IMG/VR virus record: IMGVR_UViG_2511231131_000008
Strand: one strand, 5' to 3'
Origin: a virus
Lineage: Duplodnaviria > Heunggongvirae > Uroviricota > Caudoviricetes
DNA: 46,763 bases
Position 1 is the stretch's first letter, and each line of letters begins with the position of its first letter. Positions 29,251 to 37,733 of the stretch are shown here, piece by piece. The notes under the pieces were generated by a model, which ran no database searches, had not been told where the DNA came from, and saw only the letters and a program-made list of their open reading frames with translations. The translations under genes were made by a program, and so were the position numbers.

Positions 29251-31188
29251 TTACGGGTTATTCACTTCCACTGTTATACTTTCAATCAGCACCGGATATG
29301 TCGCACCGCTAGTGATATCGGTCACGCGCAATTTGTCTGCCGTAAACGTGCCGACCGGTGACTGTGACAGCATGAACGGCGTCCCGTCCTTACCATCAAT
29401 GACCGGCGTCACCTCAATACTGTTGTTACCGGCAAAACGGAAGCCCAGCGTATGCCATTCGTTATCAAATGCGCCGAATGACCCCAGCTTCGTGTTCTGA
29501 CCAGCATTTCCCTTGTGGTACATCACATTAAGGTCTGTGGCATCGCTCTGTACGTAAAACGACGCCAGCAGGTTATGACCGGCATTACCTTCCAGTGTGA
29601 CGCCCTGAGGCAGTGAAGAAACCGGCCAGTACAGCGCCAGTGCGTACTGATTAGCTGTCAGTGTGCCATCAACTTTAAAACGACAACTGATAAGCCCGCC
29701 CTTCTCCAGCAGGTCTGCGCCATTACCGGCATCATGCTGCATAAACCACGAGGAACTTCCTGTCTGTTTGGTCCACCTCAGCGCCTTACCTCCTGCAGCA
29801 CCTGCATCATCAACTACCAATGCACGCCCTCCTTCAGCTCCCCATCCCTGCGGATTCAGTAAACCACCTGACTCTGTTGCACGGTAATAAAGCAGCGTTG
29901 TCACTGATTTCCCGTCCGTTGACGGTGTTGATGGTGTGTCCGGTGACGGCTTCTCATCCGGCGGCATCACAACCTGTTCCCCACCCACCAGTTCAGCCGT
30001 CCGTCCTGCATGGAGAAGAATCGCTGAGGCAAGACGGTCAGAAATAATCCCCCTGCGTGCCCATGAGCTGAAATGGCTCGCACGGTCTGCTGACGTCCAG
30101 TTTGCCGACGTCCGGGAGGCCGCACCGTAATATCCTGATGCCGGAATATCCGGGTCTTCTTCCGGTTTGTTCGTCGGGACATTTGCTCCGTTCTCATCGG
30201 TCATGAACGGCACAAAGTGAATATTCTTTTCCGTTTTGTTTTTGTAACTGCCGTACACCGTCTGGTAAGTGGATTCGCTCTTCTGCTTCCAGAAATAAGT
30301 TGTGTCTCCACATATCCAGGGAACACCGTCAGCAGAACCACCAGCGCACTGTCCCACCATATCTGCAAGGTCCGTACGATATTGTTCCACTACTTCTGTA
30401 AAACGGGCTGTGTGATTTGCTGGCGTTCCGTCAAAGTCAAATTCCCCCTGCATCCACACCACGGCAAGCAGCACATTTTTCGGGTTCTTTGCCAGCGCGG
30501 CTTTTGTACGACCGATGAGATCCTTATACAGCGGCCTGCCCACACCCCAGCGGGTAGAACTCTCTGAGGCACCGGTCACGTCACTGTATGTTCCATCTGC
30601 CCCGGTGGTGAAAGCTGAACCACCACGGCAGCACGGAACCAGAAGAATACCCGCATTCGCCGGTATAAACGGCAGCAGCTTTTTGGCAATATGCAGCCCC
30701 TGCCCCACGGTTCCGTACTGACCTTTCGACAGGTCAGCTTTCGGATGGTTAAGACGGCTCATGTCCTGTACATCATGCAGACAGTGGTCTGCCGGAATAA
30801 TGTCGTTATATTTACAGGGAGCGCCATCCGGCGTCACTGTGCTGCGACGAGCCAGTTGCTTTATACGCGGGTCAGGACGGTCATATGTCTGCGGCAGAGG
30901 AAGCCCCTCACCGTAAGCCATGCCGTTCGACTGCCCGGCCAGTGGAATAACGTAGTAATAATCTGGCTCCGTGGTGACCACTCCCGGATAGCCACCATCC
31001 CCCGTGCCGGGCACAACCACTGGCGTGGTCACATCCCCCTCCGCGGCAATCGCCTGCATCAGGGTATAAGGGGTTATGGCCACAGGACTACCAAACGGCT
31101 GCCAGCCCTCTTTCAGTTTGTGTGTCAGCTTTTCCGCAAGATCTGACGGCGACGCCGCCCTGACAACATCATAATGTTTAATCGACAT
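29251..31188 (-). CDS. nanS: Prophage sialate O-acetylesterase (NanS-p-type; DUF1737 + SGNH/SASA esterase)
   Basis: 645 aa; N-terminal MSIKHYDVVRAASPSDLAEKLTHKLKEGWQPFGSP, esterase motif AGQSNGMAYG; occupies the Q-S slot where Stx phages carry nanS-p. Confidence 0.8.
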   Translation of the reverse strand: MSIKHYDVVRAASPSDLAEKLTHKLKEGWQPFGSPVAITPYTLMQAIAAEGDVTTPVVVPGTGDGGYPGVVTTEPDYYYVIPLAGQSNGMAYGEGLPLPQTYDRPDPRIKQLARRSTVTPDGAPCKYNDIIPADHCLHDVQDMSRLNHPKADLSKGQYGTVGQGLHIAKKLLPFIPANAGILLVPCCRGGSAFTTGADGTYSDVTGASESSTRWGVGRPLYKDLIGRTKAALAKNPKNVLLAVVWMQGEFDFDGTPANHTARFTEVVEQYRTDLADMVGQCAGGSADGVPWICGDTTYFWKQKSESTYQTVYGSYKNKTEKNIHFVPFMTDENGANVPTNKPEEDPDIPASGYYGAASRTSANWTSADRASHFSSWARRGIISDRLASAILLHAGRTAELVGGEQVVMPPDEKPSPDTPSTPSTDGKSVTTLLYYRATESGGLLNPQGWGAEGGRALVVDDAGAAGGKALRWTKQTGSSSWFMQHDAGNGADLLEKGGLISCRFKVDGTLTANQYALALYWPVSSLPQGVTLEGNAGHNLLASFYVQSDATDLNVMYHKGNAGQNTKLGSFGAFDNEWHTLGFRFAGNNSIEVTPVIDGKDGTPFMLSQSPVGTFTADKLRVTDITSGATYPVLIESITVEVNNP

Positions 31189-31502
31189 CGAATTTCTCCC
31201 GTGTACAGGAACAGAGTTAAAAAGCCGGAACCGGAATCAAATCACAGGATGACCATCTGCCAGTGGCTGGTCGTAAAAAAAAGGCCGCGCCATGCGCAGC
31301 CGGAAATAAAGGGATAACGATGATAGTTTGAGAAAAACAGAAATAACACTTTTGTGGCAAAGCATGGTGCCGGGTGCCTCCCGGTGAATTCAGTACCAGC
31401 ACCTGAATCCGCGATTATCCCATATACCTGGTTGCTGATTGCCCCACCGCACAGGGGGATTCACCATGCAGTAGTATTTTTAATAAACAGTAAACAAAAA
31501 AA

Positions 31503-31670
31503 TCAAGCATTATGCAGGCTGTTTCTTTTTATCACCGGCCACAGCAATACCACAATGCCGCAGACCAGCCCCCCATCCGCCAGCACCGACATGATTCTGC
31601 TGGTGAAATCCACCATCACCACCAGAAACAGCAGGAGTGCAGCCACAGCCAGGCGCAGTTTTACCGTCAC
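31503..31670 (-). CDS. Hypothetical 55-aa membrane peptide (GTG start overlapping the upstream stop)
   Basis: VTVKLRLAVAALLLFLVVMVDFTSRIMSVLADGGLVCGIVVLLWPVIKRNSLHNA; GTGA start/stop overlap with the TerB-like frame. Confidence 0.3.
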   Translation of the reverse strand: MTVKLRLAVAALLLFLVVMVDFTSRIMSVLADGGLVCGIVVLLWPVIKRNSLHNA

Positions 31671-32059
31671 AGGTGATTCTCCAGACGAAGCCCCAGAACA
31701 CCGGCAATCTCTTCCAGCACCTTGCGCTCTTCCGGCTCAATTTCGCCGTCTGCCTCCGCAATGGCCACCGCCACATCCAGCACATCTTCCGCTTCACGCG
31801 TATCGTGTTTCACATCCTCGATCTCACGTAACGCCGCACGACGACCAATTTTAAAGTTCGTATCCAGCTGACCGATAATGGTTGCGCTAATCGCATTAAT
31901 TTCTGACGTAAACGCGGACAGCGCTGGCTGATTACGCAGTACCTGTTCGATCTTCGCTTTCTAGGAAGCCTCACATTCACCATCTGCACAGGCCACCAGG
32001 TATGCGGCGTTAATCACCGCCTGTGCCAGATCGCGTTTCTCAAACTTTCCTTTTTCCGG
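31667..32059 (-). pseudogene. TerB-like domain gene remnant (no start codon, internal amber codon)
   Basis: Open frame reads ...KRDLAQAVINAAYLVACADGECEAS*KAKIEQVL...DVLDVAVAIAEADGEIEPEERKVLEEIAGVLGLRLENHL, showing the duplicated A..ADGE...E...L TerB-type motif; in-frame TAG at 31961-31963; no Met anywhere in the frame. Confidence 0.5.
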
Positions 32060-32162
32060 TTAACGTGACACACCAATAACTCTTGTCGAAAAAGCCAGCA
32101 AGCTGAAAGACCGGTATTCACAACCACCAGCGCGTTTACTGTACTGGCGTGATTTCAGTCAT

Positions 32163-32187
32163 AAAAAAACCCGCCTGGCGACGGGTG
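32163..32187 (-). terminator. tR'-like rho-independent terminator downstream of pR'
   Basis: Minus strand ACCCGTCGCCAGGCGGGTTTTTTT about 50 nt downstream of the putative pR'. Confidence 0.6.
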
Positions 32188-32233
32188 TAAAAAATCTTCT
32201 AACGTCAGGCATAAAACGCCCATCGTTAGGGCA

Positions 32234-32261
32234 AATTTACCACAGATTCGGGAAAAATCAA
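32234..32261 (-). promoter_or_regulatory. Putative late promoter pR' (TTGATT-16-TAAATT) immediately downstream of Q
   Basis: -35 TTGATT (plus 32256-32261), 16-nt spacer, -10 TAAATT (plus 32234-32239) on the minus strand. Confidence 0.5.
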
Positions 32262-32266
32262 CAAAG

Positions 32267-33088
32267 CTATCTGGTCACCTTTTTCAGTTGTTGTTCTGCC
32301 CATGCTTCTTCAATATCAAACTGCACCACCAGCGTATCGTAAAAACGTTTAACTGTTTTTTTCCATGTATCAAGAGATATGGCATCGGTTACATTACATA
32401 TGGCATTAAATGCCTCCGTTGAAGGTAATCTTTCATAGCCACGACCACCACAACGCTGGCAGTCTCTGATAACAGGCATACCACGTTTTACCGACTCTTC
32501 ACGATGAATGGCAACACCGCGCCCACGACAATCTTTACAGGCGGTGGAAACCTCCCCCTTCCCTCCACACTCCGGACAGGCAACTTTTACCACCTCCCTG
32601 ACTTTTTTCCATTCCTCCCAGTAAGACGGATACACGCCTTTTGTGCACTTTGCCCACACTGGCGGCTTACCATCCGGATACTGGATCTTGTTTGTAAAAA
32701 CCTCGCTTTCAATAAATTTTTTTCCGTGACAACAGGGGCACTGTTTTTTGCTCGCCGCGCTACGGGCATAATCTTCAAACGCATACGAAGCCATAATACG
32801 CATCACTGCCGGTTTTATTTCTGCCGGGAGTTTTCTTAACGCCGCCACGCGATCACACCGACTGAGTGCATATTCTGTCAGCAATTCTGTTGCCCGCTCT
32901 CTGTCATTCATACTAATGCCCATTTTCCCAAGGAACGCAGAAAACCCCATCTCAGCCCAATTCTGTGTCATGCCCTGCGCGGCCATCACATCAGTGATAC
33001 TCAGCGTATCTTTCGACGTTGAGGCCGATGCATCAGTCAGGCCGGGGGATTTTGGGGAGTAGTATTTCGGTAAATCTTCCAGTTTCAT
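32267..33088 (-). CDS. Q: Late antiterminator Q-like protein (multi-CxxC zinc-binding)
   Basis: 273 aa with four CxxC motifs (CPCCHGKK, CPECGGKG, CKDCRGRG, CQRCGGRG); lies between rusA and the pR'/tR' unit; ATGA overlap with rusA. Confidence 0.6.
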   Translation of the reverse strand: MKLEDLPKYYSPKSPGLTDASASTSKDTLSITDVMAAQGMTQNWAEMGFSAFLGKMGISMNDRERATELLTEYALSRCDRVAALRKLPAEIKPAVMRIMASYAFEDYARSAASKKQCPCCHGKKFIESEVFTNKIQYPDGKPPVWAKCTKGVYPSYWEEWKKVREVVKVACPECGGKGEVSTACKDCRGRGVAIHREESVKRGMPVIRDCQRCGGRGYERLPSTEAFNAICNVTDAISLDTWKKTVKRFYDTLVVQFDIEEAWAEQQLKKVTR

Positions 33089-35698: not shown

Positions 35699-36564
35699 TG
35701 GCGCACCTCCTGCGGCGGTTCTGGTAGAGGCATCCAGTGTGATGGTATCCACGACGCACCAGGTATTATCCACCCATCATTAGCGTCAGGATGCCCCGGG
35801 ATGTAAGTCGCCCATTTCATTCGCCAGTCACCTTTCCTGCCAAAATCCCTGGCAACAAGAACGGCTGTTTTGGTATCCGGCATTCGCTCACTACAGCTTA
35901 TCCAACTATCCGGAGTTACCGGATAGTTGCCCGATAGTGCATTCTGCTCCAGTGATGCTTTTACAAACCACGCTGCCTGAACTATAACGCCATGAATCCA
36001 GCGCAAATCAGCATCGCGATCTTTCTTTTTCATCTTTTCGCCACTTAAGGCCTTGCTTATGTGGCTGCGTACCAGGTCTTCATGTAATTCCTTCGCCTCC
36101 TCAATGGTGAAACCACCAGGCAGAAGAGCCGGAGTTACCGGAGAGCTGGTTGACGCTTCCGGGATTTTCCGAAAATTATTGGTTGACGAATCTTTATTTT
36201 CCCGAAAGTTTCCGGACTGAAGCATGGCTTCGCGGCAATCGTTCCAGCCTGTAGCGTATGCAGTCGCTTTGCTGCTGCCTTCAACTGGCGCATCCTGCCA
36301 ATACATTTCTTCCGGCACTATCGGCGCTGGAGGGGCGGCAAATAGATATCCGCCAAAGTCAGGAAGCTCTCTAATGGCCTGTACGAATTTTTGTTTGCCT
36401 ACGTCAACCCCTAATGGGTAATGAGCTATAATCTTTGCCACCGGCTCTGCTTCCAGCGATGCCAGCGCAATCCGTGCCAGTTCCATTTGTTCACCACGGG
36501 TAAGCCCGTTTTCAAGCGGATTTTTAATGAACAATTCAATACGTTCTTTGGTAATAGTGGTCAT
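35695..36564 (-). CDS. DUF551-domain phage protein
   Basis: 289 aa; C-terminal ...WISCSERMPD...GWIIPGASWIPSHWMPLPEPP resembles the DUF551 signature as recalled. Confidence 0.6.
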   Translation of the reverse strand: MTTITKERIELFIKNPLENGLTRGEQMELARIALASLEAEPVAKIIAHYPLGVDVGKQKFVQAIRELPDFGGYLFAAPPAPIVPEEMYWQDAPVEGSSKATAYATGWNDCREAMLQSGNFRENKDSSTNNFRKIPEASTSSPVTPALLPGGFTIEEAKELHEDLVRSHISKALSGEKMKKKDRDADLRWIHGVIVQAAWFVKASLEQNALSGNYPVTPDSWISCSERMPDTKTAVLVARDFGRKGDWRMKWATYIPGHPDANDGWIIPGASWIPSHWMPLPEPPQEVRQ

Positions 36565-37090: not shown

Positions 37091-37303
37091 TTAATCGTTG
37101 TGATAACTCATAGCTTCATTTGCAGCATCAACTGGATCAACCTCCCTCCAGCAATAATTTGGGTCGGCTCCTTCAGGCGTCCACGGTTCTAATTCATTTT
37201 TTGCCGCATTCTCATCGCCAGTAATTTTAAAAATCTGCTCAGAGAATTTTCTTGCCCACTCGTTATATTTTTCCGCATTAATGGCTTTCTGTGTATTTAA
37301 CAT
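37091..37303 (-). CDS. Hypothetical small protein
   Basis: 70-aa ORF in the operon series. Confidence 0.45.
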   Translation of the reverse strand: MLNTQKAINAEKYNEWARKFSEQIFKITGDENAAKNELEPWTPEGADPNYCWREVDPVDAANEAMSYHND

Positions 37304-37353
37304 AAATATACCTCCAGTTAAGGATTAGATTTTATTTACAGCGCTAAATTTAT

Positions 37354-37733
37354 TTATTCAGTTCTGGATTTTGTCGCCCTGCGTATCCGCGCTTTCGCGT
37401 TACGCTCAATCTGAATTAACTTTTCTATATTTTTCCGCCTTTCCTGTTCCTCCTGGCGCAATAGCCTTACATCATCTGCCAGTCTGTTTTCTCTTTTCGC
37501 CACAGAGAGCATCCAGTCAAACGGCTCCACAACTGCACCGCAGATTTTACAGCGGACCTGACGCTCTTTTTCGTCAACCCGAACAGAGGCGTGATGGCAA
37601 TATGGTCTTTCCGATGGCTCATAAAGAAAATTAACCTGATTACGAGGGTTGGATTTGCCCCTATATTTCCATGCTCCTCTCCTTTGATGCGAATGCCAGC
37701 GGTAATTGAAGCCTGATAGCTAATTTCACTCAC
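37354..37733 (-). pseudogene. Probable frameshifted gene (frame A 37467-37733 plus frame -1 37354-37719 encoding a zinc-ribbon/coiled-coil segment)
   Basis: Frame A starts at GTG 37733 with an AGGAGG Shine-Dalgarno and GTGA overlap with the upstream stop; the overlapping -1 frame stays open for 121 codons (...PYCHHASVRVDEKERQVRCKICGAVVEPFDW...RLLRQEEQERRKNIEKLIQIERNAKARIRR...) with no usable start. Confidence 0.35.

Follow-up and report, generated by a model that had tools for sequence, protein, structure and literature searches.

A probable remnant of a P1-like tciA-tciB module in the Q-to-lysis cargo slot of an Escherichia coli O55:H7 prophage

Among the late genes of a lambdoid Escherichia coli prophage lies a TerB-like reading frame that is interrupted by an in-frame TAG, and for which an initial annotation of the DNA sequence proposed decay of a cargo gene. 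Is this frame a dead gene, an intact gene that was misread, or a gene that is still expressed in some form, and how did it come to its present state? We are highly confident that what is left in the Q-to-lysis cargo slot is an accessory ("moron") module of two genes, a homologue of tciA-tciB of phage P1, and that its tciA is dead. In intact relatives, the gene for a TerB-domain protein of 142-143 aa is followed, through a GTGA overlap, by that for a two-helix membrane protein of 54-55 aa.

The cargo slot and the TerB-family frame

The DNA analysed here, a stretch of 46,763 nucleotides referred to as the window, corresponds to NC_013941.1 1963162-2009924, a prophage of E. coli O55:H7 CB9615. 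The order of genes is lambdoid, with integrase, exonuclease, dicB, CI/Cro, hokD, DUF968, RusA and Q preceding the tciA/tciB slot, and the SASA-family esterase, holin, lysozyme, terminase, and head and tail genes following it; the late genes are located on the minus strand (Table 1). Past the head and tail genes are nleG-type effector genes and an IS256-family transposase gene. Specifically, window 362-3656, past the tail fibre genes, contains nleG7, which encodes a type III effector, as well as genes for the IS256-family transposase and a DUF1076 (NleG-like) protein, and is a typical effector "exchangeable locus" located at the end of the prophage. Decay is seen also elsewhere in the prophage, where the gpJ tail-tip gene is frameshifted and two early-region genes are partial, and the prophage as a whole is probably defective.

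Table 1. Positions in the window of the features discussed in the text.
Feature	Position	Strand	Basis or remark
Late antiterminator Q gene, 273 aa	32267..33088	-	Upstream boundary of cargo slot; ORF list, RefSeq
Second, weaker terminator-like hairpin 3' of Q	32233-32217	-	Terminator scan
Intrinsic terminator-like hairpin and T-run, tR'-like, 3' of Q	32169..32186	-	Terminator scan
Deletion junction, AAA/AAAAAG microhomology	32046..32048	-	BLAST against L006 (WP3-W18)
tciA/TerB-family remnant, codons 18-143 of 143 and TGA	31667..32047	-	Translation, Pfam, PHROG
In-frame amber codon, GAG to TAG at Glu46 (intact numbering)	31961..31963	-	DNA alignment, five intact alleles
tciB-like gene (DUF3927), intact, 55 codons	31503..31670	-	ORF list; RefSeq WP_000216629.1
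STnc100/PasD-type prophage sRNA gene	31329-31495	-	Rfam RF02076, 99.6 bits against gathering score 47, full-length match
SASA/NanS-p-type sialate esterase gene	29251..31188	-	Downstream boundary of slot; ORF list, RefSeq
Other decayed genes	6084-9463, 36041-36457, 37247-37549	-	RefSeq annotation

The initial annotation placed the frame between pR'/tR' and a nanS-p-type esterase gene. The flanks agree with this placement: Q and two terminator-like hairpins are found on one side and the esterase gene on the other, and the Q-downstream terminator region is 90% identical to its counterpart in the intact WP3-W18 prophage. The hairpin with the T-run would correspond to tR', while the pR' part of the assignment is putative. 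A promoter scan of the minus strand returned no sigma-70 site at its threshold; read by hand, a candidate with the sequence TTGATT-16 nt-TAAATT is located upstream of the terminators and matches the consensus at 8 of 12 positions. Transcription from pR' is predicted, and the region would be transcribed only when pR' transcripts are antiterminated by Q.

As also stated in the initial annotation, the slot is devoid of stx and of tRNA genes, and ARAGORN finds no tRNA gene in the whole window. The cargo consists of tciA/tciB and an STnc100/PasD-type sRNA gene, the latter flanked by the tciB-like ORF and the esterase gene, with a strong terminator downstream of it (31301-31283), and unannotated in the RefSeq record. 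According to a 2026 preprint (bioRxiv 10.64898/2026.05.13.724894), STnc100 is related to the PasD prophage sRNAs, which are located upstream of sialate esterase genes. At a permissive threshold, the Rfam search gave beyond STnc100 only chance-level matches to asX2, suhB and anti-hemB, all below their gathering scores. RefSeq further lists a partial "hypothetical protein" pseudogene at 31165-31308 on the plus strand, overlapping the esterase start and the terminator; this fragment is seen beside nearly every copy of the module inspected and probably represents either an artefact of annotation or a remnant of long standing.

Translation of 32062..31667 on the minus strand yields TAA, followed by 130 sense or stop positions without a single Met, a TAG at 31963-31961, and the terminal TGA at 31669-31667. 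Upstream of the remnant, the frame remains open to 32059 through unrelated sequence that offers no ATG. The claim that the frame has no start codon thus holds for ATG and Met, but two in-frame GTG codons exist (32017-32015 and 31813-31811), neither of which would give a full-length product; GTG 32017-32015, the sole start-type codon upstream of the TAG, precedes it by 18 codons. Two acidic motifs are recognized in the frame, ACADGECEAS*KAKIEQVL (the asterisk denoting the stop) and AEADGEIEPEERKVLEEI. The second of these, AEADGEIEPEE, is intact, while in the first, ACADGECEAS, the final Glu is replaced by the TAG, which was read directly on the minus strand in agreement with the initial annotation.

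The family assignment is significant in profile searches, so that the TerB-like frame with its duplicated motif, first noted from the letters, stands. Pfam PF05099 (TerB) matches residues 13-125 with E 2.3e-11 and 44.4 bits (cut-off 24.4), and PHROG 632 ("tellurite resistance") matches with E 1.7e-59 over profile positions 17-143 of 143. Positions 1-16 of the PHROG profile are unmatched, and position 17 pairs with a residue from the unrelated sequence. In NCBIfam, the matches, to DjlA (25.5 bits, threshold 162) and YmfL, all remained below threshold and were uninformative, except that the N-terminal domain of DjlA is TerB-like. In PADLOC-DB, only a partial PDC-S48 match was obtained for the frame (14.5 bits, E 0.0035), and nothing for the DUF3927 ORF. 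RefSeq annotates 31667..32029 as a "tellurite resistance TerB family protein" pseudogene with an "internal stop". Measured against a functional tciA, i.e., a complete ORF of 142-143 aa with a start codon and no internal stop, the window copy is incomplete, and of the two A-D-G-x-x-E-x-x-E type acidic motifs of the TerB family its first is broken. A full-length TerB protein cannot be encoded here.

The second gene is the 55-codon hydrophobic ORF with a GTGA overlap described in the initial annotation, and is confirmed as DUF3927/TciB-like on the minus strand. Its GTG start (31670-31668) overlaps the tciA TGA (GTGA, 31670-31667), and a GGAG of its own is present 8 nt upstream of the GTG. The ORF scores 60.5 bits against Pfam DUF3927 (cut-off 25) and E 1.5e-29 against PHROG 1470 ("TciB-like"), and hydropathy indicates two hydrophobic segments, at residues ~5-22 and ~32-48; RefSeq lists it as a DUF3927 family protein. 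We predict that the intact tciB could still be translated, using its own GGAG, whenever late transcripts antiterminated by Q extend through the slot, although TciA, its partner, is gone.

A deletion junction and an amber codon

Intact homologues occupy the corresponding position in other prophages and phages, where a DUF3927 gene and a sialate esterase gene come directly after them. The copy in O157:H7 TW14359 has 142 codons and a TTG start in RefSeq, those in WP3-W18-CRE-03 and STEC1585 have 143 codons and start with ATG, and those in phages Evi and PPyecE_EH1910 are intact and ATG-initiated; the Sakai Sp12 copy is annotated "TciA/TerB-like protein", with a match that covers the first 201 nt only. 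Compared with the Evi protein, the window frame shows 2 differences in 126 residues, a C for Y at codon 37 and the stop.

Upstream of window 32048, no homology to the intact genes is left, and the shared part runs from tciA codon 18 onward. In the BLAST comparison with the WP3-W18 locus (L006), window 32374..32046, comprising the 3' end of Q and the Q-downstream leader, aligns to 247..575 with 90% identity, and window 32048..31522 aligns to 2501..3028. Approximately 1,925 bp of the intact prophages is absent from the window at this junction. In L006, the absent segment comprises a 65-aa ORF and the genes for a DNA methyltransferase and three tRNAs, and extends over the first 50 nt of tciA, so that tciA has lost its first 17 codons including the start codon. 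The parental sequences at the junction are GGGAAAAAG/ACATG on the left and ATTAAAAAG/TTTGAG on the right. A deletion between these short A-rich repeats fused the leader 3' of Q/tR' to tciA codon 18. Lost with it were the small ORF, the genes for the DNA methyltransferase and the tRNAs, and the region upstream of the module together with its start codon. As it stands, the junction places codon 18 behind the ribosome-binding site that belonged to the small ORF, with no start codon. A single ~1.9-kb deletion thus explains why the gene has no start codon and lies so close to tR', and why the slot has no tRNAs.

The second lesion is the amber codon. Codon 46 is GAG in all five intact alleles aligned and TAG in the window, and the TAG is identical in all nine other TAG alleles inspected. 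Glu46 is the conserved last Glu of the first A-D-G-E-x-E-x-x-E TerB motif. With the 5' deletion and the amber codon at Glu46, tciA is dead twice over, and, as judged from the sequence, its function is lost. The proposal that this is a cargo gene in decay is supported by the alignment to intact genes, which maps both the ~1.9-kb deletion and the GAG-to-TAG change, and with the pseudogene flag that RefSeq assigns independently.

Differences in constraint between the two kinds of allele point in the same direction. The intact alleles differ almost exclusively at synonymous positions, as for Evi and STEC1585, where 42 codon differences are synonymous and 1 is nonsynonymous. Substitutions private to the TAG alleles, the TAG itself excluded, comprise 5 nonsynonymous and 2 synonymous changes, a count based on only five intact and nine TAG alleles, with ancestry blurred by recombination; the 5:2 and 1:42 ratios of nonsynonymous to synonymous changes differ with a Fisher p of 6e-5. 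The nonsynonymous changes are D26N (in the ADGE motif), A76T, H85R, H129Y and L130Q, numbered in the window frame from 32059, where adding 13 gives the position in the intact protein. The FRIK2533 copy, with several indels in a record that holds many frameshifted genes, was treated as a problem of assembly quality and left out of the counts. Although the sample is small, the TAG alleles appear to be under relaxed constraint, in the direction expected for a pseudogene.

Could the gene nevertheless be expressed, either through amber suppression or readthrough, or as a 48-aa single-motif C-terminal fragment initiated at GTG 31813-31811, perhaps with retained coupling to tciB? The frame is otherwise open and the TAG allele is frequent, and the 48-aa ORF is present in the ORF list and matches the 48-aa family phrog_3920; ORFs of this kind are picked up by gene callers in phage genomes. 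However, no start codon exists upstream of the TAG for the full product, which leaves readthrough nothing to extend and means that it could not rescue the window copy. Amber suppression, considered a remote alternative also in the initial annotation, is rejected for the same reason and because the window has no tRNA gene, while the tRNAs beside related copies have the anticodons CAT, TTT and TCT, and none has CTA. As for the 48-aa fragment, GTG 31813 is preceded only by a GAGG 2 nt upstream, a poor Shine-Dalgarno spacing, and its 48 codons include three of the five amino-acid changes private to TAG alleles. A match to phrog_3920 would be expected also from the annotation, by ORF callers, of pieces of this one broken allele. 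Taken together, continued expression of the gene in either form is very unlikely.

The tRNA genes ahead of intact tciA are assigned by ARAGORN as Met(CAT), Lys(TTT) and Arg(TCT), at 2139-2379 of the TB182A locus (L014) and 2531-2772 of the Evi locus (L015). RefSeq describes the same cluster as Ile/Arg/Arg, with only two of the three annotated in TB182A, and the two sources disagree on the identity of the middle tRNA. The CAT tRNA is presumably of the lysidine-modified Ile2 type.

The amber allele in Escherichia coli prophages

The distribution of the two lesions was assessed in 5,426 complete E. coli genomes. A conserved 59-mer of the gene occurs in 2,676 places in 803 of these genomes, with a median of 4 per genome. 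A 44-mer with the TAG at its centre has 960 occurrences, spread over 576 genomes with up to 5 in each, so that the TAG accounts for ~36% of the ~2,676 copies, and 576 of the 803 carrier genomes have at least one. The 44-mer with GAG gives 164 places, which is an undercount since other GAG haplotypes lack the 28-nt exact word. The deletion-junction query, at a coverage of at least 80%, identifies 477 of the 5,426 genomes. RefSeq flags tciA copies as pseudogenes in CB9615, O103:H2, O26:H11, O157:H7, O145:H28 and others.

These numbers bear directly on the possibility that the TAG and/or the missing start codon result from sequencing or assembly error in a gene that is really intact. The initial annotation held that an intact, ATG-initiated homologue of the same length without the TAG would speak for such an error, and TAG-free homologues do exist, with ATG in four of five. 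Their length, however, differs by 17 additional codons at the N terminus, so that the outcome is split but still favours decay. Moreover, the region of 871 bp around tciA/tciB is 100% identical in six independent complete assemblies (O55:H7 CB9615 and five others), the TAG 44-mer and the junction recur in genomes that were assembled independently, and the missing start codon is a 1.9-kb structural difference rather than a base call. A TAG that is reproduced this often must be a real allele, and error in reading or assembly has practically no chance of being the explanation.

Ten junction alleles were retrieved, from the window, 377323_2f, O103:H2 12009, O26:H11 11368, E110019, O157:H7 3384, 2013C-3277, AUSMDU00014361, O26:H11 FWSEC0001 and O145:H28 12E115. 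The TAG was read directly in eight of the ten, and is indicated in FWSEC0001 and 12E115 by the 44-mer match and the RefSeq "internal stop"; none has GAG. Full-length copies that carry the TAG together with a start codon and the upstream tRNAs occur in a second prophage of O55:H7 TB182A and in the pork isolate FORC_042, which means that the nonsense mutation is not tied to the deletion. The simplest interpretation is that the TAG preceded the deletion.

In the tciB of the window lineage, a T-to-G change at 31570 (V34G) has created a run of six G (31574-31569). Two junction alleles are frameshifted in this run, 377323_2f by one additional G and O103:H2 12009 by the loss of one, and RefSeq retains the name "DUF3927 family protein" for the shortened products.

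The matrix of variable sites is mosaic, as in the case of a TTTC block at 32019-32006, which a subset of the junction alleles shares with intact copies from STEC1585 and PPyecE. In O26:H11 FWSEC0001, the junction allele is found behind a different Q gene, and homology to the window stops at 32146. The locus (L019, 460-2276) has the junction and TAG allele behind a short 113-aa Q-family gene and three hypothetical genes on the opposite strand, an arrangement that shows modular exchange of the segment upstream of window 32146. The nonsense allele is old and common, and moves among lambdoid prophages by recombination.

Exact matches of 37 nt to the tciA 5' region (window ~32048-32012) are present in E. 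coli 600468 (L018, 2448-2561) and many non-EHEC genomes, where they belong to a short, partial pseudogene with the annotation "DUF3927 domain-containing protein" beside IS100 and IS200/IS605 elements. This is a remnant of the module outside a prophage late operon, and such matches, being short and next to IS elements, were rejected as informative copies.

The ~36% share of the TAG could also mean that a null allele is favoured or tolerated. Loss of TciA might be advantageous in EHEC and EPEC, for example if the protein is costly or redundant when the late genes are expressed. The same TAG in more than a third of the copies and in most carrier genomes, at times repeatedly within one genome, would fit such an advantage, as would its presence in several contexts and serotypes and the loss of tciABC from about half of the P1-like elements of subgroup 1 (PMC9603915). 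On the other hand, collections of complete genomes are dominated by clonal EHEC lineages, and the same pathotypes also harbour intact alleles, on which purifying selection is strong. Because segments are freely exchanged among lambdoid prophages, as seen at the mosaic sites, hitch-hiking accounts for the numbers without selection. A favoured null allele is therefore unlikely. The fuller version, in which the E46-amber allele is kept for some effect or advantage of TciA loss in attaching-and-effacing or Shiga-toxigenic E. coli and is spread by selection, with the orphan tciB functional, is more doubtful still.

The preferred reading is ordinary gene decay, with a pseudogene status that is already in the public annotation. 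Public as well are the gene family, the pairing with a small membrane protein and the place in the cargo slot. The additions made here are one microhomology deletion as the exact account of the lost tRNAs, methyltransferase and tciA start codon, and the recognition that a single nonsense allele, which makes up ~36% of the copies in complete E. coli genomes, is passed from prophage to prophage through recombination. The locus provides a tidy case of a pseudogene hitch-hiking in mosaic lambdoid prophages, and a caution for surveys of EHEC prophages that score "TerB" cargo as functional; beyond such bookkeeping, the significance is small.

Comparison with related phage modules and ter operons

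The closest counterparts are the intact lambdoid pairs in Evi, TW14359 and PPyecE_EH1910, which occupy the same slot between Q/tRNAs and the esterase gene, feature the same GTGA, and are 89-98.5% identical in DNA to the window over the shared 546 bp. Unlike these copies, which start with ATG or TTG and encode Glu46, the window copy is devoid of codons 1-17 and carries TAG at position 46. It also lacks the upstream tRNAs of its intact relatives and the methyltransferase of prophages of the WP3-W18/STEC1585 type.

The architecture of Q, terminator, cargo, esterase, holin and endolysin is the same as in the slot of Stx phages (Q, tRNAs, stx, nanS-p, lysis), and related intact prophages have the same Ile/Arg/Arg tRNA cluster ahead of tciA. 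Unlike in Stx-converting phages, the slot in the window contains neither stx nor tRNAs.

TerB of the terZABCDEF operons belongs to the same domain family (PF05099), and the duplicated acidic motif is common to both. The intact Evi homologue matches the TerB NMR structure (2JXU_A) over residues 14-137 with E 4.4e-8. In contrast to the ter operons, the phage version stands alone and is paired with a small membrane protein, and no other ter gene (TerC, TerD, TerZ, etc.) is found among the 64 annotated features of the window. Phage inhibition, as well as resistance to tellurite and colicins, has been linked to the ter operons (PMC9603915). Based on this analogy, the intact pair might form a membrane-associated complex in which the two-helix membrane protein partners a TerB domain that is cytoplasmic and binds metal, and which would act on envelope or ion stress, or in exclusion.

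In phage genomes, tblastn matches to the family include P1 and P1-like phage-plasmids, Erwinia jumbo phages, and phages of Vibrio, Pseudomonas, Klebsiella and Salmonella. We found no functional experiment on tciA or tciB in the literature, and for DUF3927 no functional study, only a single incidental mention; the P1 tci functions are annotated "by homology". In P1, tciA (141 aa) is directly followed by tciB (54 aa) and then by tciC, which belong to a variable region, tciABC, that has been lost by nearly one-half of the P1-like elements in subgroup 1 (PMC9603915). P1 TciA is 42% identical to the intact Evi homologue, and P1 TciB is 53% identical to the window ORF. The module in the window differs from that of P1 in its location, a lambdoid late-operon cargo slot, and in its truncated tciA with a nonsense codon. 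The P1-type adjacency is nonetheless retained, with a TerB-like gene followed on the same strand by a DUF3927/TciB-like gene, and the two systems have in common a TerB protein of ~141-143 aa ahead of a hydrophobic protein of 54-55 aa, with tRNA genes nearby in both.
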